From positions 16,257-23,745 of the forward strand of contig CAYJVY010000005.1 of the NCBI GenBank assembly GCA_964373795.1: a stretch of DNA of 7,489 bases, given 5' to 3'. A program made the position numbers and the translations under genes. Position 1 is the stretch's first letter. The number at the start of each line of letters is the position of its first letter. The DNA is from an uncultured archaeon (GTDB taxonomy: Archaea; Iainarchaeota; Iainarchaeia; Iainarchaeales; DATDZZ01). The notes beneath the pieces are model-generated. The model saw nothing but the letters and a program-made list of their open reading frames with translations. It did not search any database and was not told where the DNA came from. This document shows, one piece after another, positions 1 through 7,489 of this stretch.

Positions 1-54
1 GCTTCAGTCAAACAGCAAACGCAACTAATTAATATCAAATTGCACATTATTTAA
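1..54 (+). CDS. 3' end of an upstream gene entering from the left edge (last 17 codons, ...ASVKQQTQLINIKLHII, stop TAA 52-54). Product unknown.
   Basis: Frame 1 is open from base 1 to TAA at 52-54. The stop lies 3 nt before the ATG of the next gene, an operon-like junction. Too short to assign a function or to prove it is coding. Confidence 0.35.
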   Translation, partial: ASVKQQTQLINIKLHII

Positions 55-57
55 TGC

Positions 58-1539
58 ATGTTGAATGAAAGAGCTTTCACTTTATTCACTGCATTGATTT
101 CATTTATTTTAATTGCTTTAACAATGCTGTTAATTTCAAGCATGACTGCTACCTCTACGAATACTGAAAACATTATTGCTTCAATTGAAGAGCAAACAAA
201 AATGCAGGCATTAGCTGATTTAGCTAGAGCAGATGCAGTGCAAACATTTAATTATGGAGTGAGAAGAAGATTTGAAGAATATTTTTTAGGTGAAAGCAGG
301 GTAACAATTACTAGAGGGCAAACCTGGGAAGACATTAAGAAAGAGTTTGCTAGAACTTTTTTTGCTTCAGAGCCTTCAACTGAAAACCCTTATGGAGTAA
401 GAGCTTTTGCAGATAATGCTACTGCATACATTGAAGACATTTTAAGTAATTCTCCTGCAATTCCAGGATTTACTGTTACTTTAACTAAAGGAGCTACAAA
501 AGAATTAAACGATGTATTGCAAAAATCTGTTTTAAAATCTTTAAGTGATCCGTCAAAAAAATTTTTTGAAGTAGTTGAATGTGAAGGAATAATAAGTAAC
601 TGCGTTATTGGAACTTTTTTTGTAAACCTGGATTTAAGTGAAGTAACAGATAAAGAATATGAAAAACTTCCTCAAATAAGGGTTGAAAATGATTCAACTG
701 GCCGCGTTATAAAAGAACCAATTCTGCCTAGAACTAATTACAGAATTTATTTTCCAATAAGAATTTTTAAAGCAATTGCAATTGGAAGAACAATTTCAGA
801 TCCTGGAACAGGGTTATTAAGTTCTGGATTGAAGACTCAAATTGAAAGCTATGGAATAGGTTTCTGTGATCCAAATCAATGCTCTCCAAGAAATGAAATT
901 TTGCCAGGCAAGCTTTCAACAAAAGTAGGCCTTTGCCCTGGAGACAGTGGAGCAAGTACTTTAGTAAATTTTGCAAATGAAACAATTGACCCAATTCCTT
1001 TTACAACAGGGTATCATTCTTCAATTAAAGAATATAGAGCTACAAGCTTGGATAGTGGGCAACCAGTTTTAAGAGACAAGATTTTGGAAAAAATTTGCAC
1101 TCATGCAACTACTTCAATTCCTTCTCTAAGCGGGCATAACGTTGAATTAATTGGAACAAAATGTGGAGGAAAAATTCAAGACATTTCATTAATACTTGAA
1201 CAACAAGAAACAGTTACAGTTAAAGGAGAACTAGAAATAACTGCAGGAGCAATTCCTTCTTTTGGAGGAAGCTCAGCAACTCCTGGAACAACTACTAGAG
1301 GGCCTTATACCTTGAATTGTTTAAAGCCATCCAAGATGGAGATAACTTTTCTTGTAAGAGAAAAAGACAAAAAATACATGGTGAATGAAAGAAATTATTC
1401 AACCAATCCATTAGCTGGATTTAAGATTGAAATTCAAGACAAGTATACTCCTTCAAGCACTAAATGGAATTGTCTTTCAAAATGCACTAAATCAGATATT
1501 TCTCCAGGATGCCAAGTGAAAACTTGTAATCCGATTTAA
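58..1539 (+). CDS. Secreted cysteine-rich protein with a type IV pilin-like (class III signal peptide) N-terminus. Putative large minor or tip pilin-like surface protein.
   Basis: 493-codon ORF from the track. The N-terminus MLNER-A|FTLFTALISFILIALTMLLISS has a short charged leader, R at -2 and A at -1, then F plus about 22 hydrophobic residues, which is the prepilin-peptidase substrate layout. All 12 Cys lie after the helix, including the C-terminal cluster WNCLSKCTKSDISPGCQVKTC. It carries N-x-S/T sequons (NAT, NDS, NET, NYS). There is no SD upstream; the ATG sits 3 nt after the upstream stop, suggesting translational coupling. Coding status is strong; the functional call is inference. Confidence 0.8.
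   Translation: MLNERAFTLFTALISFILIALTMLLISSMTATSTNTENIIASIEEQTKMQALADLARADAVQTFNYGVRRRFEEYFLGESRVTITRGQTWEDIKKEFARTFFASEPSTENPYGVRAFADNATAYIEDILSNSPAIPGFTVTLTKGATKELNDVLQKSVLKSLSDPSKKFFEVVECEGIISNCVIGTFFVNLDLSEVTDKEYEKLPQIRVENDSTGRVIKEPILPRTNYRIYFPIRIFKAIAIGRTISDPGTGLLSSGLKTQIESYGIGFCDPNQCSPRNEILPGKLSTKVGLCPGDSGASTLVNFANETIDPIPFTTGYHSSIKEYRATSLDSGQPVLRDKILEKICTHATTSIPSLSGHNVELIGTKCGGKIQDISLILEQQETVTVKGELEITAGAIPSFGGSSATPGTTTRGPYTLNCLKPSKMEITFLVREKDKKYMVNERNYSTNPLAGFKIEIQDKYTPSSTKWNCLSKCTKSDISPGCQVKTCNPI
76..141 (+). other. N-terminal hydrophobic helix of the 58-1539 product (FTLFTALISFILIALTMLLISS), the predicted class III or prepilin-type signal core.
   Basis: An uninterrupted run of about 22 hydrophobic residues directly after the ER-A motif, read from the translation. 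Confidence 0.55.
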
Positions 1540-1545
1540 ACTTCC

Positions 1546-1562
1546 TGTATAATACAATGTAT
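1546..1562. promoter_or_regulatory. Three-arm palindrome TGTAT-a-ATACA-a-TGTAT. Candidate operator for the RHH antitoxin.
   Basis: Read directly: TGTAT (1546-1550), ATACA (1552-1556) and TGTAT (1558-1562). Adjacent arms are perfect inverted repeats with 1-nt spacers, placed immediately upstream of the TATA-like box. RHH antitoxins classically autoregulate through such repeats (established knowledge). The assignment here is inference. Confidence 0.35.
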
Positions 1563-1566
1563 ACTA

Positions 1567-1574
1567 TTTATATT
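1567..1574 (+). promoter_or_regulatory. TATA-box-like element TTTATATT upstream of the toxin-antitoxin pair.
   Basis: AT-rich octamer close to the archaeal TATA consensus, about 40 nt upstream of ATG 1614. A bacterial-type TATAAT also occurs at 1548-1553. AT-rich spacers produce such matches by chance. Confidence 0.3.
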
Positions 1575-1601
1575 GTTAGATGACTATTAAATAGATATTG
1601 A

Positions 1602-1606
1602 GGTGA
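1602..1606 (+). promoter_or_regulatory. Shine-Dalgarno GGTGA for the antitoxin gene.
   Basis: GGTGA lies 7 nt upstream of ATG 1614. The same GTGA core precedes 1855 (4 nt spacing), 2167 (5 nt) and 2336 (6 nt). Confidence 0.55.
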
Positions 1607-1613
1607 ACATTAA

Positions 1614-1850
1614 ATGAACATAAATCTTGGAGAACCATACAACGTAATAATAAAAAAAATTATTGAAGATGGTTATGCCGGAAATTATACAGAAGTAATT
1701 AGGCAATCTTTGCTAGCCTATGAGAAAATGCTTAAAGAAGAAGAAGTTAATCTTGTAAATAAAGGCATTGAAACTGAAATGCAAGAAATTAAATCTAAGC
1801 AAATAAAAACAAAAACTTTGGAACAATTGAAAAAGAAATACAAGCTGTGA
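1614..1850 (+). CDS. Type II antitoxin, ribbon-helix-helix (ParD/CopG-like).
   Basis: 78 aa. The N-terminus MNINLGEPYNVIIKKIIEDGYAGNYTEVIRQSLLAYEK fits the strand-helix-helix pattern of ParD-type RHH antitoxins, with the G-Y-x-x-x-x-E-V-I-R-x-x-L signature. The C-terminal tail is long and K/E-rich. It has an SD, and its stop lies 4 nt before the toxin ATG. Confidence 0.7.
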   Translation: MNINLGEPYNVIIKKIIEDGYAGNYTEVIRQSLLAYEKMLKEEEVNLVNKGIETEMQEIKSKQIKTKTLEQLKKKYKL

Positions 1851-1854
1851 TTTA

Positions 1855-2115
1855 ATGCAAGTAATTTTTTCAGAAAAAGCAGAAAAAGAATTGGATAAAA
1901 TGGATCATTTGTTTAGAAAGCTTTTTTTTAAGAATATTGAAAAAATTAAAGAGTTTCTTCCAAGAAGACATTTAAGATTTGGTTTGCCATTCAACGTTGA
2001 AGAAGTAACAAAACAAGCACGGATTGTTTACCAAATAGAAGAAAACAAACTATTTATACTCCATTGCTTTGATACTCACAAAGAATATGAAAAATGGTAT
2101 AAATCATTTAAGTAA
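1855..2115 (+). CDS. Type II toxin, RelE/ParE superfamily.
   Basis: 86 aa. MQVIFSEKAEKELDKM... followed by ...ARIVYQIEENKLFILHCFDTHKEYEKWY matches the family pattern (x-I-x-F-S-x-x-A-x-K-x-L near the N-terminus; R-I-[IV]-Y-x-I-x-x-x-x-[IL]-x-I-L-x-x-x-x-H-[KR]-x-x-Y near the C-terminus). Size and position directly after an RHH gene are typical. It ends with tandem in-frame stops TAA CTC TAA (2113-2121). Confidence 0.75.
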   Translation: MQVIFSEKAEKELDKMDHLFRKLFFKNIEKIKEFLPRRHLRFGLPFNVEEVTKQARIVYQIEENKLFILHCFDTHKEYEKWYKSFK

Positions 2116-2126
2116 CTCTAAATCAC

Positions 2127-2250
2127 AGATTGTGGCAAACAGTCTCGCGTGGTTAACGTGAAAACAATGCAAGTCATGCATTTAAATGAAGATCTTGCGC
2201 TTGCCAAGCCCAAGGCGTTTTACACTCGCCTGATTGGCAGGATAGGAATA
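2127..2250. other. G+C-rich island in the spacer. Candidate structured RNA, leader, or relic of foreign sequence.
   Basis: Hand count: 55 G+C in 2131-2250 (46%) and 28 of 50 in 2191-2240 (56%), against 17 of 80 (21%) in 2251-2330. It contains competing hairpins built on the segment CCAAGGCG (2210-2217). No tRNA T-loop or rRNA-like motif was recognised. Confidence 0.3.
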
Positions 2251-2319
2251 GGTTTATATATAAAATACCCTTTAAATTATTATATTAAAGACTTAAGAGT
2301 TAACTCTATAATTAAATGA
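2167..2319 (+). CDS. Possible 50-aa small ORF (MQVMHLNEDLALAKPKAFYTRLIGRIGIGLYIKYPLNYYIKDLRVNSIIK). Hypothetical.
   Basis: Below the track's size cutoff. ATG 2167 is preceded by GTGA (2158-2161) at 5-nt spacing, like the other genes here. The start context AATGCAAGT is identical over 9 nt to that of the toxin gene at 1854-1862. Against it: it is short, its composition changes abruptly midway, and it would overlap the TATA-like box of the giant gene. Confidence 0.2.
   Translation: MQVMHLNEDLALAKPKAFYTRLIGRIGIGLYIKYPLNYYIKDLRVNSIIK
2198..2221 (+). terminator. Hairpin followed by T4. Possible terminator of the toxin-antitoxin transcript.
   Basis: CGCTTG (2198-2203) pairs with CAA(G)GCG (2211-2217), with one bulged G and the loop CCAAGCC, followed by TTTT (2218-2221). 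The stem is short and only four T follow. Confidence 0.25.
2253..2265 (+). promoter_or_regulatory. TATA-box-like element TTTATATATAAAA upstream of the giant gene.
   Basis: A match to the archaeal TATA consensus (TTTATATA), preceded by the purine-rich GGAATAGG (BRE-like), about 75 nt upstream of TTG 2336. Chance matches are common in AT-rich DNA. Confidence 0.35.
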
Positions 2320-2324
2320 AGTGA

Positions 2325-2329
2325 AGTGA
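2325..2329 (+). promoter_or_regulatory. Shine-Dalgarno AGTGA for the giant gene.
   Basis: The GTGA core lies 6 nt upstream of TTG 2336, with the same motif and spacing class as in front of 1614 and 1855. Confidence 0.45.
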
Positions 2330-2335
2330 GCTTAT

Positions 2336-5300
2336 TTGAGTTTTTTTGAAGATTTAGAAGATAGGTTTTGGAAGTTACTAGAAGACTTGCAAGATAAAGG
2401 AATTCCTTTAATTAAACTCGCGTATTTTTTAGATGATAGAAAAATTCCTGCAATGCCGGTTTTTGCTTTAATTACATTATTAGTTCTTAGTGTATTAGGA
2501 TTTGGAGTTTATAATTTATTTCTTCAACCACAAGCAAGTGTTACTTTAACTGTTTTAGGCGTTGAATCAAAGCCTTTAGATTCAGTTGAAGTAAAATTAA
2601 AAGTAAACGATGAATTAAAAACCTTGCAAACAAAGGATGGAAAGATTCAATTAAATGTTCCAATTGGGGCAAAGCTTTCAATTGAAATTGAAAAAGAAGG
2701 ATATGAAAAAAAAGAAAAAAGTTTTACAGTTGATGAAGTAAAATTTGAGCAAACACTTACTTTATTGCCTGTTTCAGCAACTATTTCTAAAACAATTAAA
2801 TTAGTGAATGCAGATAAATCTTTATTTGATAAAAGTGTTACTGCTTCTTTTAGTTGTAGTAATAATACTGGTTTTTCTAAAAGCGAAATAGTTGAAAAAG
2901 GAGAAGTAAAACTAGACAACATTCCAAGCGATTGTGGAAATTTATCTGTTTTTGTAGAAAAATTTAATGTTAAAAGTAATTCAATTAATTTAGATGAAAA
3001 AGGCGCTGCTCAAATAGTTGTAGAGCAAGTGAAAAAAGATTTTGGAAAAGTAAGAGTTGAAGTAAAAAAGGATTCAGGAGAAGCATTGTCAGGAATTAGT
3101 GTAGAACTATACACTTCTCAGAGAATGGCTTATACTAGAGGAATTACTACTCAAGATGGAACAGTTGTATTTGAAAACGTTGAAGTAGATAATTATTACG
3201 TTGTTGCATCAGATGGAAGTGGAGAGTTTTTAACATTTGATGGAAGTGCAAATAAAAAAGATGTATTAAAGGATCAAACAACTTCTTTCACTGCAACAAT
3301 GAAGAAAGGAGTTAAAGGAGAAGTAAAACTTAAAGTAATTAATAAGCAAACTTCTTTGCCTGTTGCAAACGCAATTATAACTTTATTGAAAGCAGATGGA
3401 TCAAAGCATTCCGAACCAAAACAAAGCGATGCAGAGGGAAAGGTTTCATTCAATGTTCCAGATGCAGCTTCATATAAAGCAGTAGTAGATCATCCTGATT
3501 ACTTGTTTCAAGAAAAAGGAGATTTAAGAAAAACAGAGTTAGATGAATTTACTTTAATTCCTGTAACAGAAGCAACAGCTGATAATAGGAAAAGCTTGCT
3601 TGTAAGAGTTTTAGATGAAAAAGGATTACCAGTTGATGCAGTGAAAACAGTTCTTCAAACAGGGGATGGAACTCCTCTTGGATTGGAAAAAATTACTGGA
3701 GCAGATGGAATTGTTTCATTTGGAAACTTGAAGGAAGGAGAATACTTAATTTTTGCAGTTAAAACAGGGTTTAAAGGAGTGTTAAGTCAAAAAGTGCAAG
3801 TAAAGGATAGAAAAGTTAATACTTTAGATGTAAAAATTTCTTTAGGAACTGGAACAGTTGAATTAACTGTTTTAGATGAAGATAATCAACCTATTTCAGG
3901 AGCAACTGTAACTTTATTTGATTATTTTACTGATGAACAACTTGAAAAAGAAAAATTAGTTGACTCTCAGGGAAAGGTTTCATTCACTGTAAGAGCTGAT
4001 AAAAAAATTTATTTAAAGGCTTCAGCAAACAATTTCTTAAACTATGTAACAATTCCATTACAATTAGCTAATAATGTTACAATTAAAAAAGAAATTAAAT
4101 TAGTTGACGATGTTCCAAGCGTTGAAGCAAAACTAGTTGGATTATTTGTTTCAACTCAAGAAGGAGATCAAGAAGTAAAAGATTCTTTAAATTCTGGAGA
4201 CAAATACAAGGTTAGACTTCAAGTAATTACTCCAAAAAATAGTTCTTTTGAAGAAATAGGTTTACATGTTAGAACAGGAAAACAAGAAGAAAATAAAACA
4301 AATATAATGGAAGCAGATCCTTTATTCATTAAAGAAGTTTTCAGTTCTGCTTCTCAAATAAGAAAAGGAACTAGTTTTACTCCTTCACTAGGGTTTTCAA
4401 ACGATGCAACTCATTTAACAAGCGGAGCAGCTAAATGGATTAATTCTACTTGGAGAAAACCTTTAGCAGGAGTATATGAATTGGAAGCAGAGATTCAAGT
4501 AAACAAAGTAGAAGCAAGAGATGACTTGAAATTATATTATAGAGCATGGGGTAAAAGCGGAAGCTATGTAAGAGATCCAGCAGACAAAGAATTAGGCAAT
4601 GCAGCTAATACTGCTAAAAAACAAGAATTATATGCTCATTCAAAGGAAAAAACTTATTCAGTTGGAGTAGCATCAAATGTATGCGTAAGAGAATTTTGCA
4701 GTAGTTTAACAATTGAAGACTTGTTTTCAAATCTTGAAACAGGAATAGTAGACCAATACAGTGCAAAAATTACAAACAATTACAAGTTAAGATTTAATTT
4801 AGTTAATAGTTCTACTTCAACTTTTAGTGGATTAAAATTCAAGGTATTCAATGAATTAGGAGGAGTAGAACTTCAAAACTATAAAATTGAAGTGCAAGGA
4901 AAAGAGCTTTTAGGAAACGCGGAAAATAATGAAATTAATTTAGATGTATTAAAGTTAACTGGAGACGAACCAATTTCAGGAGAAATTAATTTCAAAACCT
5001 CAAAGGATGGACAGTCAAAGATTGTAATGCAATTAATTTCTGGCAGAGACACTTTATTTGAAAAACAAGTATTAGTTGATGTAAGCCCTGCGCAAACACT
5101 TAAAGTAGAAGTAGTGCCAAAAGCAGTTGTTCCATTCATTAACAATCAATTTGTATTCAAAGTAACAAAACCAGAAGATAATTCTGCTATTCCAAATGCA
5201 TTAATTAGATTAATGTTAAATGAAACACTTGTAGTAACAGGGAATACTAATTCAAGAGGAGAATTTGAATACACTTTAACTGCGCCTTCAAGTGGTGCAA

Positions 5301-7489
5301 AGCTTTCAATTGAAGTAGAAAAAAATGGATTCCAAAAAGTAAAAAAAGTAATGAATGTAGCAGAAGAAATTCTGGATATAAATCCATTAAACATTGTTGA
5401 AACATTAATTGTAAGCGGAATAGAAGCAAAAACAAATGGTTTAACTATATTCAATGACACTGAAATTCCTTTAAAAATATCAAAGGTTGATGCAACAGGG
5501 GATTTCACTGGATTAGTTAAAGTAGAATTTAGAGAGAATTTAATTGACTTGGTTTTAAATCCTAAAAGAGATTATAATTTCCAATTAGATTTAGGTTTAA
5601 CAAGTAAGGGAAAAGAAGTAAGCCAACCTCAAAGACTGCAAGGAAAAATTGATTTACATTTAACTAATGAAGCATTTAATAAGACTTGGATTAATTCAAT
5701 TCCAGTTGAAGTAAAAATTGCTTTTGGTTCTGCAATAGATCAAAAAGATTGTTTAACAGTAAATCCATTGAATTGGAATGTGTTTACAAGCAATGAAGTT
5801 AAAACATTAGATGTTGCAGTGAAAAACTCTTGTGAAGTGCAAGGCAAGCCAGTTGACTTGCAAGGACTAGAAGTAAAAATTAATAGAGGAAATGAAAACG
5901 AATTAGGAGCATTCAAGTTAAGAGATGAATTAACTGAAAAAGAAGTAACCTTAACAAATGTATTCCAAAAAATTTCAACTCTATTAAAACATAACGCAGA
6001 CAATGTTTACACTATTAGGTTTGAACCAAAAGAAGTAACTTCTTCAACCTCAGAGCCAAAAATTATTTTCAGAGCAACTCATAGAACAGCTAACGGAGAC
6101 GAAGTAATTGAAAAACTAGTGAAAGTAAAAGTTGAAATAAATGATTTAATTAAATGTGTTGAAGTAAAGGATACAGGAAAATTATTAGTTGAATCTTGTC
6201 CATACAATACAGGGTTTTCAGCTGCAAGATTCAGTGTTCCAATTCAAGGAGCCTTACCAGAACATGTTTTAACTAGTGGAACTCTTTCCTCGGATAGAGT
6301 TTCATTGCTTCAAAATAGGAATCCAATATTTCCTAACCTTGATTACACTGGAAGATTATTTGATTCATATAATCAAAACCCTGCAGCTGCAGGAATCTTT
6401 GCATGCCAAGACACTCAATTCAGAATTGAAAACAATTGTTCAAGCATTGTTTCAGTTGATTTAGCTCAAGACTCTGCATTAAATGTAGCTGAAAGCGCGT
6501 TTGATATAGAGCCAGGAAAAGACAAAGTAGTAACAATTGGGCAAAGCTATAAAATGGGAACTTATAAAGTTAGAGTGCAAGCAAAAATTAAAGGAGCAAA
6601 TCAAGCAAGTCAAGAAATTAAAACTCTTTCAGTAAGCGTTAAAAGCTCTAGTCAAGCAACAGCTAATTGTATTAAGTTAAGTGATCCAGGAGACGGAGTA
6701 TTCAGATTTAATGATTTATTCCAAAAACCTGTAAGAGGAGTTTTAACAAATGAATGTGTTGCATCAGGAGTATACTTGTATAAAAATTCTTTAGATACTT
6801 CAAGTTTAGTGAGTTATACAGGGCAACAAATGCAAATGGCTTCAAGACTAATAACTGAAGGAGATCCAGATCCTACTACAAGATTTGATGGAAAAGAAAT
6901 TCAAGAACTAAAATTCAGGGTTGAAAAAAATTTATTTTACAAAAAAGCAGATTCATTAAATCAATTAAAAGAAGCTAGAGGCCCATTAGATTTAGTTACA
7001 GGAGTAAGAGCTGTTCTAGCTCAAGGATATGTAACAGTAAACGAAGCAGGATATTTAAAAGTAAATTACACTGATGGCTTTTCTCAATCAAAATCAAAAG
7101 AAATTAATGTAACATTCCAAGACTATTTTAGGTCAACTGAATTCCTTGAAACACAGTATGGAAGCACTAAATGGACTACAGCAGCTGACTTGCAAGCTCA
7201 TTGTTTAAGGCCATTATATTTAGGAACTTTAACTGACACTGACTTTGGAAACACTGACACTATTACTAAACGTCCTGCAGATGACTTAGTAATAGTTGGA
7301 GCAGAAGCATGTGGATCAACAGATGGTTTAAGTAATTTAAAAGTTAATCCAAACATGTTACGCGAATTAAGCGAGAAAGGATTGGATTTAAGTTTTAGAA
7401 TAACTGGTGGAAGGCTAACTGGAAGAAACCAAACAATTGAAGCAGTAATAACTAGAACAGATAAATTTGTTGAACCATTAACAATTGAT
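2336..7489 (+). CDS. Giant signal-anchored surface protein, truncated at the 3' window edge (at least 1,718 aa). Multi-domain CarboxypepD_reg/PEGA-like adhesin-like protein.
   Basis: Not in the supplied track. Hand translation of frame 2 shows no stop from the TGA at 2327-2329 to base 7489. The frame was re-checked against coordinates at 2582, 3002, 4022, 5042, 6002, 7022 and 7487. TTG 2336 is the only canonical alternative start (ATG/GTG/TTG) close behind the SD-like AGTGA; the first in-frame ATG is 2453, which would begin inside the TM helix. The translation starts (M)SFFEDLEDRFWKLLEDLQDKGIPLIKLAYFLDDRKIPAMPVFALITLLVLSVLGFGVYNLF. It is K/E/V/T-rich throughout, with alternating beta-strand-like patterns. 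There are 14 Cys, in seven local pairs. There are at least 14 N-x-S/T sequons. Confidence 0.9.
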   Translation, partial: MSFFEDLEDRFWKLLEDLQDKGIPLIKLAYFLDDRKIPAMPVFALITLLVLSVLGFGVYNLFLQPQASVTLTVLGVESKPLDSVEVKLKVNDELKTLQTKDGKIQLNVPIGAKLSIEIEKEGYEKKEKSFTVDEVKFEQTLTLLPVSATISKTIKLVNADKSLFDKSVTASFSCSNNTGFSKSEIVEKGEVKLDNIPSDCGNLSVFVEKFNVKSNSINLDEKGAAQIVVEQVKKDFGKVRVEVKKDSGEALSGISVELYTSQRMAYTRGITTQDGTVVFENVEVDNYYVVASDGSGEFLTFDGSANKKDVLKDQTTSFTATMKKGVKGEVKLKVINKQTSLPVANAIITLLKADGSKHSEPKQSDAEGKVSFNVPDAASYKAVVDHPDYLFQEKGDLRKTELDEFTLIPVTEATADNRKSLLVRVLDEKGLPVDAVKTVLQTGDGTPLGLEKITGADGIVSFGNLKEGEYLIFAVKTGFKGVLSQKVQVKDRKVNTLDVKISLGTGTVELTVLDEDNQPISGATVTLFDYFTDEQLEKEKLVDSQGKVSFTVRADKKIYLKASANNFLNYVTIPLQLANNVTIKKEIKLVDDVPSVEAKLVGLFVSTQEGDQEVKDSLNSGDKYKVRLQVITPKNSSFEEIGLHVRTGKQEENKTNIMEADPLFIKEVFSSASQIRKGTSFTPSLGFSNDATHLTSGAAKWINSTWRKPLAGVYELEAEIQVNKVEARDDLKLYYRAWGKSGSYVRDPADKELGNAANTAKKQELYAHSKEKTYSVGVASNVCVREFCSSLTIEDLFSNLETGIVDQYSAKITNNYKLRFNLVNSSTSTFSGLKFKVFNELGGVELQNYKIEVQGKELLGNAENNEINLDVLKLTGDEPISGEINFKTSKDGQSKIVMQLISGRDTLFEKQVLVDVSPAQTLKVEVVPKAVVPFINNQFVFKVTKPEDNSAIPNALIRLMLNETLVVTGNTNSRGEFEYTLTAPSSGAKLSIEVEKNGFQKVKKVMNVAEEILDINPLNIVETLIVSGIEAKTNGLTIFNDTEIPLKISKVDATGDFTGLVKVEFRENLIDLVLNPKRDYNFQLDLGLTSKGKEVSQPQRLQGKIDLHLTNEAFNKTWINSIPVEVKIAFGSAIDQKDCLTVNPLNWNVFTSNEVKTLDVAVKNSCEVQGKPVDLQGLEVKINRGNENELGAFKLRDELTEKEVTLTNVFQKISTLLKHNADNVYTIRFEPKEVTSSTSEPKIIFRATHRTANGDEVIEKLVKVKVEINDLIKCVEVKDTGKLLVESCPYNTGFSAARFSVPIQGALPEHVLTSGTLSSDRVSLLQNRNPIFPNLDYTGRLFDSYNQNPAAAGIFACQDTQFRIENNCSSIVSVDLAQDSALNVAESAFDIEPGKDKVVTIGQSYKMGTYKVRVQAKIKGANQASQEIKTLSVSVKSSSQATANCIKLSDPGDGVFRFNDLFQKPVRGVLTNECVASGVYLYKNSLDTSSLVSYTGQQMQMASRLITEGDPDPTTRFDGKEIQELKFRVEKNLFYKKADSLNQLKEARGPLDLVTGVRAVLAQGYVTVNEAGYLKVNYTDGFSQSKSKEINVTFQDYFRSTEFLETQYGSTKWTTAADLQAHCLRPLYLGTLTDTDFGNTDTITKRPADDLVIVGAEACGSTDGLSNLKVNPNMLRELSEKGLDLSFRITGGRLTGRNQTIEAVITRTDKFVEPLTID
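2453..2521 (+). other. Single transmembrane helix (signal anchor) of the giant protein.
   Basis: MPVFALITLLVLSVLGFGVYNLF is 23 mostly hydrophobic residues preceded by DDRK (positive-inside). Everything downstream is hydrophilic beta-type sequence with paired Cys and sequons, consistent with an extracellular location. Confidence 0.7.
2540..4105 (+). repeat. Six tandem protein modules of about 80-88 aa, of the carboxypeptidase-regulatory-like / PEGA-like (transthyretin-type beta-sandwich) kind.
   Basis: Approximate module boundaries: 2540-2770, 2771-3028, 3044-3307, 3317-3565, 3590-3847 and 3851-4105. They share a recurrent pattern. One example is GTVELTVLDEDNQPISGATVTL...DSQGKVSFTV. Another is LLVRVLDEKGLPVDAVKTVLQTGDG...TGADGIVSFGNLKEGEYLIFAVKTGF, which is the CarboxypepD_reg signature (strand, small residue plus V-x-L, D-G-x-x-x-F, G-x-Y). 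The repeats are at protein level. DNA identity is limited to an 18-nt match, 3435-3452 = 3969-3986, encoding the GKVSF motif. Confidence 0.7.
4106..5098 (+). other. Central region of the giant protein (about 330 aa) with no family I can name.
   Basis: Starts DDVPSVEAKLVGLFVSTQEGDQEVKDSLNSGDKYKVRLQVITPKNSSFEEIGLHVRTG and includes AAKWINSTWRKPLAGVYELEAEIQV, LKLYYRAWGKSGSYVRDPADKELG and the close Cys pair VCVREFC (4682-4699). It looks beta-rich but does not follow the module pattern on either side. Confidence 0.4.
5099..5359 (+). repeat. Seventh, displaced CarboxypepD_reg/PEGA-like module.
   Basis: LKVEVVPKAVVPFINNQFVFKVTKPEDNSAIPNALIRLMLNETLVVTGNTNSRGEFEYTLTAPSSGAKLSIEVEKNGFQKVKKVMNV. It shares GAKLSIE(I/V)EK(E/N)G(Y/F) with module 1 and an exact 18-nt DNA match, 2669-2686 = 5297-5314. 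Confidence 0.6.
5360..7489 (+). other. Distal region of the giant protein: beta-type modules each bracketed by a cysteine pair. Family unassigned; continues past the window.
   Basis: Cys codon pairs at 5750/5831, 6155/6197, 6404/6437, 6668/6755 and 7202/7310. In three pairs the second Cys sits in a hydrophobic-x-N-x-C motif (VKNSC, IENNC, LTNEC) followed by a beta-strand-like run. This resembles the strand-N-x-G layout of CARDB-type sandwiches, but with Cys in place of Gly. Confidence 0.45.

Follow-up and report, generated by a model that had tools for sequence, protein, structure and literature searches.

Do a pilin-like protein and a giant membrane-anchored protein, encoded one after the other in an archaeon of the Iainarchaeota, belong to a single cell-surface apparatus, and if so, what might that apparatus do? 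The question is raised by a stretch of 7,489 nucleotides (hereafter the window; contig CAYJVY010000005.1, positions 16,257 to 23,745, assembly GCA_964373795.1), in which a gene for a protein of 493 amino acids (aa) precedes a giant gene whose first 1,718 codons fall within the window. A preliminary description of the window had proposed that a pilin-like tip protein and a giant adhesin form a cell-surface or host-attachment module of a DPANN archaeon. As judged from sequence and gene order, the two large genes are part of a phylum-wide, tightly ordered Iainarchaeota cluster, and the proposed DPANN surface module finds support; the roles of "tip protein" and of "host attachment" are what one might infer from such sequences.

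The gene order around the window was read from the contigs of relatives. Among GTDB species representatives, 49 loci with the pilin-like gene were found, nearly all of them labeled Iainarchaeum, Diapherotrites or "archaeon"; of the others, two short contigs come from bins assigned to Chloroflexi and one contig from a Micrarchaeota bin. The cluster runs in the order archaeosortase-family gene (often), giant A (~2,800 aa), pilin-like gene (~500 aa), giant B (~2,500-2,700 aa), a protein with four predicted transmembrane (TM) helices (~155 aa) and giant C (~2,400 aa), with a fourth giant at some loci, and spans ~26 kb, or ~2% of a 1.2-Mb genome. Giant B, scored as a gene with the motif EDKYY...KGIPxY...IPSFP and a product of 1,200 aa or more, lies downstream of the pilin-like gene on the same strand in 30 of 30 loci with enough sequence (median gap ~130 bp), and giant A (~2,400-2,900 aa) lies upstream in 23 of 23 such loci (median gap ~46 bp); the linkage of the two large genes is thus strongly conserved in relatives. 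The four-TM protein is found in at least 11 loci. Directly upstream of giant A, an exosortase/archaeosortase-family gene (~190 aa) is present in 11 loci and in L005 and L008, that is, in at least 13 genomes (L005:278-826, L008:1-528 and, for example, L015:582-1142 and L039:482-1060); it scores 42 bits against a cut-off of 23 for TIGR04178 and has the candidate Cys, Arg and His residues. No other family was recurrent in the flanks within 10 kb on either side at ~50 loci, including the assembly ATPase, platform and peptidase of type IV pili (T4P). On one contig of 160 kb, genes for five small, highly hydrophobic multi-TM proteins of 78-134 aa come after the last giant (L009:17276-19041).

All real genes of the window lie on the plus strand, so that the co-directional arrangement of the 493-aa and giant genes stands, and screens of the window for tRNA genes, Rfam families and tandem repeats found none. 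By BLAST, the window giant is 34-35% identical to the middle giants (giant B) of L004 and L005 over 1,300-1,660 aa but only 21% identical to the upstream giants (giant A), and on this comparison it is the orthologue of giant B. The coupled gene that had been suspected on the left cannot be read in the window, because only 57 nt precede nt 58 and all frames stop between nt 26 and 54; it is the synteny of relatives that argues for it. In frame 3 these nucleotides encode FSQTANATN*, which bears a weak likeness to the ...NAFGETIQT* end of giant A in L060.

The 493-aa protein begins with MLNERA followed by FTLFTALISFILIAL; the residues from +1 are also given as FTLFTALISFILIALTMLLI, the start thus being MLNERA/FTLFTALI, where the slash marks the predicted cut. 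Hydropathy indicates one hydrophobic segment (aa 4-34). A homology search returned 27 proteins, and the named ones all belong to Candidatus Diapherotrites or Iainarchaeum, including the complete GW2011_AR10 genome, which agrees with the proposed DPANN origin of the window. In a profile search of 1.84 billion representatives the family comprises 247 clusters at E<=1e-3, almost all of 350-620 aa. The motif [KR][GA]/F[TN]LFTAL is present in 121 of 161 retrieved members. Since the motif is present and conservation begins exactly at Phe+1, although leaders have between 4 and 51 aa (median 6), we read it as a prepilin, or class III signal-peptide, signature. The 493-aa protein therefore carries, by its sequence, a prepilin-type N-terminus for which cleavage is predicted, and it resembles archaeal class III signal-peptide proteins in its short basic leader ending in [KR][GA] and its hydrophobic helix of ~20 residues. 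The FTLFTAL start resembles bacterial pilins of the GFTLIE type, but the residue at +5 is Thr, not Glu, in 118 of the 121 motif-bearing members. Glu at +5 is a feature of bacterial pilins, and archaeal pilins do not need it; archaeal class III signal-peptide proteins also include proteins that use no filament, for example the sugar-binding "bindosome" proteins of Sulfolobus.

Beyond this N-terminus the family stands apart. The protein had no Pfam match at E<=1, to the pilin models N_methyl and Class_IIIsignal or to any other, and passed none of the curated pilin models, including TIGR02532. Weak matches to the N-terminus of the minor pilin ComGF were found in 19 of 23 members (E 2e-4 at best; the window protein scores 17.7 bits, the cut-off being 80), along with a few weak matches to the pseudopilins ComGE, ComGD and HpsC. 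The AlphaFold2 model, built on a 23-sequence alignment (pLDDT 79.8, pTM 0.73), predicts that a helix (aa 4-77) precedes a region of mixed alpha/beta structure and long beta-hairpins. Foldseek comparison of this model with the PDB gave nothing below E=0.2, pilin or other fold, and a profile search of PDB sequences with the family gave no match. At the level of sequence and predicted fold, the family is without detectable relative outside the Iainarchaeota. Of the 12 Cys residues, eight are shared by 18 or more of the 23 aligned sequences. In L061, the closest named relative (42% identity), the pilin-like gene is followed at 1610-2188 by a gene for a DsbA/Thioredoxin_4 protein with a signal peptide and then by a divergent LPG-synthase gene; such a DsbA-like neighbor would fit disulfide formation in Cys-rich ectodomains.

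The giant open reading frame (ORF) starts with TTG at 2336 and is free of stops to the last base of the window. Its product begins (M)SFFEDLEDRFWKLLEDLQDKGIPLIKLAYFLDDRKIPAMP and then has one TM helix (aa ~38-64; 35-64 by hydropathy) with Arg-Lys on its N-side, so that an N-in, C-out topology is predicted. The extracellular placement that had been assigned to both large proteins is supported. The N-terminal motif, xEDKYYxxLDxLDxKGIPxY...IPSFP, is common to all three giant paralogues and to giants of Micrarchaeota; a profile search with the 63-aa anchor motif of the giants returned three short fragments only. In Pfam searches, aa ~66-590 show five CarboxypepD_reg stretches (E 9.5e-32), with further prealbumin-like matches to SpaA (1.4e-11) and SdrD_B (2.5e-9). 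The giant also has a match to Big_1 and, as sub-threshold beta-sandwich similarity, matches to bMG3 and MG4. The transthyretin-like repeat protein NOMO2 is the sole PDB sequence match. An alpha-2-macroglobulin-like protease trap, a candidate prompted by the bMG3 and MG4 matches, was rejected, as no conserved thioester CxEQ was found; a single, non-conserved CYEQ occurs among the giants, in P0029.

A strongly conserved central domain follows at aa ~600-800, with the motif YRAWGKxGxYVRDPxDxELG and a Cys783/Cys788 pair. It is common to giants A and B and to the Micrarchaeota giants, matches no family in Pfam or among PDB sequences, and is predicted as mostly beta (pLDDT 70-87). The model of aa 590-1718 is a near-pure string of beta sandwiches, interrupted by one disordered or low-confidence linker, and Foldseek returned for it only generic multi-Ig/MG-domain proteins at TM-scores of ~0.1, without a specific fold. 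By Pfam, profile, Foldseek and PDB sequence searches, neither large protein belongs to a curated family, in agreement with the earlier remark that the large components of the window could not be assigned to a family by eye. The window part of giant B has 14 Cys, arranged in seven close pairs 5-36 residues apart, most of them conserved in orthologues. The argument that had been drawn from N-glycosylation sequons was dropped, since their numbers in the two large proteins equal the shuffled expectation (4 against 4.2 and 14 against 14.9).

About one third of giant B lies outside the window, as its orthologues measure 2,401-2,763 aa. No near-identical tandem repeats were found in giant B, no LPxTG in any giant examined, and no SLT domain (Pfam) in the window giant B or its full-length orthologue P0028. 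The full-length giants and pilin-like proteins have an N-terminal TM helix only; a C-terminal one is absent, and their last 60 aa contain no PGF motif. Since the C-terminus of the window's own giant B lies past the window end, this result on sorting signals is that of its relatives. The middle and downstream giants share an extreme C-terminal motif, ...VC[VI]xxxxxxxLxWNPxx, which lies beyond the window end and was seen in P0028-P0032 and at L004:11778-19787, L007:17518-24102 and L009:7023-9974. By sequence and predicted structure, the giants are paralogues, N-terminally anchored and with an ectodomain of at least 15 beta-sandwich domains that carry conserved Cys pairs. A Micrarchaeota contig (L059, MNVG01000019.1) encodes two giants, at 1119-8366 and 10001-18649, that share with the Iainarchaeota giants the N-terminal anchor motif (as EDRYY...PSFP) and the central domain, with AbiE and MNT/HepT toxin-antitoxin (TA) pairs interleaved. 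No pilin-like partner was detectable on this contig; the giant family thus reaches beyond the Iainarchaeota, and the pilin-like family does not.

The distal end of giant A differs strongly among species, with a mean column identity of 15% over the last 300 aa. The 3' ends examined include L037:9058-9957, L039:9050-9949 and L041:9083-9982. In Pfam searches, an SLT domain was found in 2 of 21 species (best 2.5e-14) and a glucosaminidase domain in one of 21 (2.5e-9), and the SLT match of giant A in P0033 was sub-threshold. Some ten more C-termini align to an SLT-like pattern, several of them with Lys in place of the catalytic Glu; a profile of this group placed MltC and a phage cell-wall hydrolase first among PDB sequences, at E~0.1 only. 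In L060, the nearest relative of the window with upstream sequence, giant A ends without an SLT or glucosaminidase domain. A peptidoglycan hydrolase in an archaeon would have a foreign, bacterial wall as its target, and only these domains of giant A, in some species, suggest contact with bacteria.

From these observations we hypothesize, at roughly even confidence, that the cluster builds a cell-surface fiber complex in which the pilin-like protein is the dedicated partner of the giants, and which serves contact with cells or surfaces. According to this hypothesis, the giants would stand as rods tens of nanometers out from the membrane, with a common stalk and differing distal "heads". The pilin-like protein would be processed by a prepilin peptidase encoded elsewhere, and its helix would then stay in the membrane or form a short pseudopilus-like stub associated with the anchors of the giants. 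It would accordingly act as a membrane-proximal partner of the giants rather than as a general pilus subunit or tip, and the whole complex would mediate the contact with other cells or surfaces.

Several points count against this hypothesis. The surface complex is known here from genes and predicted models, and that of giant B has medium confidence (pLDDT 67.7, from 6 sequences). The prepilin peptidase is assumed, the gene scan having covered the cluster flanks, and the pilin-like N-terminus has no above-threshold pilin match and carries Thr, not Glu, at +5. L061 is the single exception to the gene order that was seen: no adjacent giant is found within 1.6 kb downstream of its pilin-like gene, and the 67 nt upstream of it look intergenic. 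Moreover, Iainarchaeota have been argued to be capable of free-living life (as cited in PMC10936187), so that the contact partner may be no host. Finally, a core envelope structure would account for the near-universal presence of the cluster as well as an adhesin would.

Two kinds of protein already known should be compared with the cluster: giant surface proteins of DPANN archaea (PMC8204110, PMC6642349) and class III signal-peptide proteins of archaea (PMC4858521). Large DPANN proteins with lytic-transglycosylase domains occur in Pacearchaeota and Woesearchaeota (PMC8204110) and in DPANN metagenome-assembled genomes from oxygen-deficient zones (PMC10936187). Like the giants here, those of fam00969 reach ~3,000 aa and are predicted to be extracellular (PMC8204110); they are proposed to bind or degrade bacterial walls at contacts, and giant A has SLT or glucosaminidase domains in some species. 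On the published descriptions, giant B is set apart from them by the lack of SLT and by its phylum, and neither a pairing with a pilin-like protein, nor a shared N-terminal anchor motif, nor a multi-giant operon is described in the fam00969 papers. The SPEARE proteins of Nanohaloarchaeota (Hamm et al. 2019, PMC6642349) likewise are giant, mostly extracytoplasmic proteins with one membrane anchor and numerous domains of adhesion type; their genes occupy several per cent of a ~1-Mb genome, and a role in host contact has been proposed for them. SPEARE proteins are usually anchored at the C-terminus, whereas the window giant is anchored at the N-terminus; their serine-protease, laminin-G and cytoplasmic restriction-endonuclease domains were not detected in the giants by Pfam, and no pilin-like partner is reported for them. 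Gram-positive proteins of the SpaA/SdrD type and bacterial giant adhesins are rods of tandem prealbumin/Ig-like domains with a distal binding region, in agreement with the Pfam matches of the window giant to SpaA, SdrD_B and Big_1. The window giant differs from them in having no LPXTG or sortase signal and no near-identical tandem repeats, and its anchor is an N-terminal TM helix in place of one in the cell wall or outer membrane. Also considered was the "novel secretion system" of arCOG01314 (Makarova et al. 2015, PMC5898192), whose defining components are DUF4350, MoxR ATPase and vWA proteins; it was dropped, as these families are not recurrent in the flanks.

The main alternative is that the cluster forms a core envelope scaffold, S-layer-associated or made of spacer fibers of the cell's own wall, with nothing host-specific about it. 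We consider this unlikely, although it accounts well for an ordered cluster in essentially every Iainarchaeota species sampled, which is housekeeping-like and unlike variable adhesins. The archaeosortase-family gene at the head of the cluster also points this way, as this enzyme class processes archaeal S-layer glycoproteins, and so does the proposal that Iainarchaeota are potentially free-living (PMC10936187). However, no cluster protein has the C-terminal TM sorting signal or the PGF-CTERM motif, the giants are anchored at the other end and by far exceed the known archaeal S-layer proteins in size, a survey preprint assigns Iainarchaeota an S-layer protein (10.1101/2024.05.28.596244), and the peptidoglycan-hydrolase domains of giant A would be without a substrate in an archaeal wall.

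Less probable still is a reading of the 493-aa protein as a genuine pilin, minor or at the tip, of a T4P whose machinery is encoded elsewhere, with the giants as independent adhesins that share its regulation. The prepilin-type leader and the invariant FxLFTAL start are what such a pilin would have, 19 of 23 members weakly match the N-terminal models of ComGF, ComGE, ComGD or HpsC, and the long N-terminal helix gives the predicted protein a "lollipop" shape. Bacteria are known to have large modular minor pilins and tip adhesins, and such proteins have been predicted for archaea as well (PMC4858521, PMC8179133); the predictions for archaeal T4P loci include large "pilins" and adhesins that contain Cys (PMC4858521). 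Unlike archaeal T4P proteins, the 493-aa protein has no linked assembly ATPase or platform and passes no pilin model, and its globular domain has no structural relative, matching no pilin fold in Foldseek. Genes for small major pilins, like those for ATPase, platform and peptidase, are not recurrent within 10 kb at the ~50 loci, and the invariant neighbors are instead the giants: the gene is apparently single-copy per locus and always lies between two of them. The "tip protein" of the preliminary description finds no footing in this gene neighborhood.

Between the two large genes of the window lies a pair of small ORFs that had been described as a TA cassette. The 78-aa protein matches RHH_8 (0.021), ParD_antitoxin (0.033) and TIGR02606 (7.7e-5), all below threshold, and the 86-aa protein has sub-threshold matches to ParE_toxin (0.0025), Gp49 (0.0056) and HigB (range 0.0025-0.08), together with weak matches to YoeB and to a RelE-type PADLOC model (CARF_RelE). 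The gene of the latter begins 4 nt past the stop of the former. In the sizes of the two proteins, their spacing and their antitoxin-first order, the pair is like type II TA modules of the ParD/ribbon-helix-helix (RHH) and RelE/ParE kind; unlike established ones, its matches all fall below curated cut-offs, and a PDB sequence search gave no match for either protein. Because the weak profile matches are consistent and the antitoxin comes first at a 4-nt spacing, a type II TA module of RHH/ParD plus RelE/ParE form is a reasonable reading of the two sequences.

The pair of small genes does not belong to the module. The spacer between pilin-like gene and giant B measures 796 bp in the window against 90-280 bp in most relatives, and no TA pair occurs at this position in the relatives' loci. 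Spacers of 1-2 kb are found in five other loci, in three of which the inserts were identified (Table 1). As other lineages hold different accessory genes in the same spacer, the window pair is, on this comparative evidence, a lineage-specific accessory insertion and no component of the surface module. The spacer (window 1540-2335) appears as a recurrent landing site for accessory genes, and in L004 the cluster itself is closely preceded by a RelE-like pair. Within the window spacer, the segment at 2113-2260 is richer in GC (42%) than the window as a whole (31%) and the other spacer (23%), and its predicted RNA folding is above average (z = -2.55); it overlaps a doubtful 56-aa ORF (nt 2149-2319) and matched no Rfam family.

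It is very improbable that the cluster is a polymorphic-toxin or contact-dependent antagonism system, in which the giants would deliver variable C-terminal effectors and the small genes would provide immunity or addiction: the C-termini of giant A are indeed highly variable (SLT, glucosaminidase and unrelated tails) and TA-type genes recur at giant clusters (the window, L004, L025 with Fic/DOC, and L059 with AbiE and MNT/HepT), but it is the conserved pilin-like gene, and no variable immunity gene, that always directly follows giant A, the window pair has an ordinary type II TA form, the inserts differ in kind and position by lineage as in a random accretion of the mobile accessory genes in which this genome type is known to be rich (PMC6393860), and the C-terminus of giant B, with its VC[VI]...WNP motif, is conserved rather than polymorphic.

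Table 1. Features of the window, and inserts in the corresponding spacer of other loci (given by locus).
Feature	Position	Strand	Basis
Probable 3' end of upstream gene, giant A orthologue	1..54	+	Stops at nt 26-28, 30-32, 52-54; frame not fixed
Pilin-like 493-aa gene, unannotated Iainarchaeota-specific family	58..1539	+	Profile search, alignment, AlphaFold2 model
Short charged leader MLNERA, predicted cleavage after Ala6 (R-A/F)	58..75	+	Family motif
Hydrophobic N-terminal helix of mature pilin-like protein, aa 7-34	76..159	+	Hydropathy, AlphaFold2 helix, weak ComGF matches
Putative RHH/ParD-type antitoxin, 78 aa	1614..1850	+	Sub-threshold profile matches
Putative RelE/ParE-superfamily toxin, 86 aa	1855..2115	+	Sub-threshold profile matches
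GC-richer segment between toxin gene and giant gene	2113..2260		GC content, predicted folding
Giant B, first 1,718 aa, cut by window end	2336..7489	+	ORF, orthologue lengths, BLAST identity
Cytoplasmic N-terminal motif and single TM helix of giant B	2336..2527	+	Hydropathy, conservation among giant paralogues
About six prealbumin-like beta-sandwich domains (CarboxypepD_reg/SpaA/SdrD_B-type)	2531..4105	+	Pfam; PDB sequence search
Conserved central domain of giant B with Cys783/Cys788	4133..4735	+	Invariant columns, AlphaFold2 model
Further beta-sandwich modules with conserved Cys pairs	4736..7135	+	DSSP, pLDDT, Cys conservation
Low-confidence linker in giant B, aa ~1290-1356	6203..6403	+	AlphaFold2 model
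Spacer insert, AAA_14+DUF4143 ATPase	L014:11743-12948		Family match
Spacer insert, Fic/DOC protein	L025:11381-12511		Family match
Spacer insert, GGDEF protein	L040:3339-4439		Family match

The hypothesis of a giant-fiber surface complex with a pilin-like partner can be carried further, to an undescribed contact organelle in which three or four N-anchored giant fibers would be bundled or primed at the membrane by a non-filamentous pilin-like subunit with a novel fold, and which would attach to a bacterial wall and locally breach it. Of these fibers, giant A is the one with a distal segment that is Gly-rich and hydrophobic, to which several species add a peptidoglycan hydrolase. The chances of this extended form are slim in our view; if true, it would mean a lifestyle that involves a bacterial host, as partner or prey, and an apparatus of the phylum's own, distinct from type IV pili, SPEARE and the known secretion systems.

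Searches of the literature outside subscription journals met with no account of the cluster, of the pilin-like family, of the anchor motif or of the fixed pairing of pilin-like protein and giant. To our knowledge the Iainarchaeota have no cultured member, and their lifestyle, free or host-dependent, is disputed. A phylum-wide cluster that takes up ~2% of a 1-Mb genome offers a handle on this question, and it names concrete protein targets: the pilin-like family, the three giants, the four-TM protein and the archaeosortase-family enzyme. The pilin-like family itself is a newly defined, unannotated family of ~250 clusters with no detectable structural relative, and the N-terminal anchor motif is common to giants of at least two DPANN phyla. 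As for the organism, the hydrolase ends of giant A would predict a bacterial partner.

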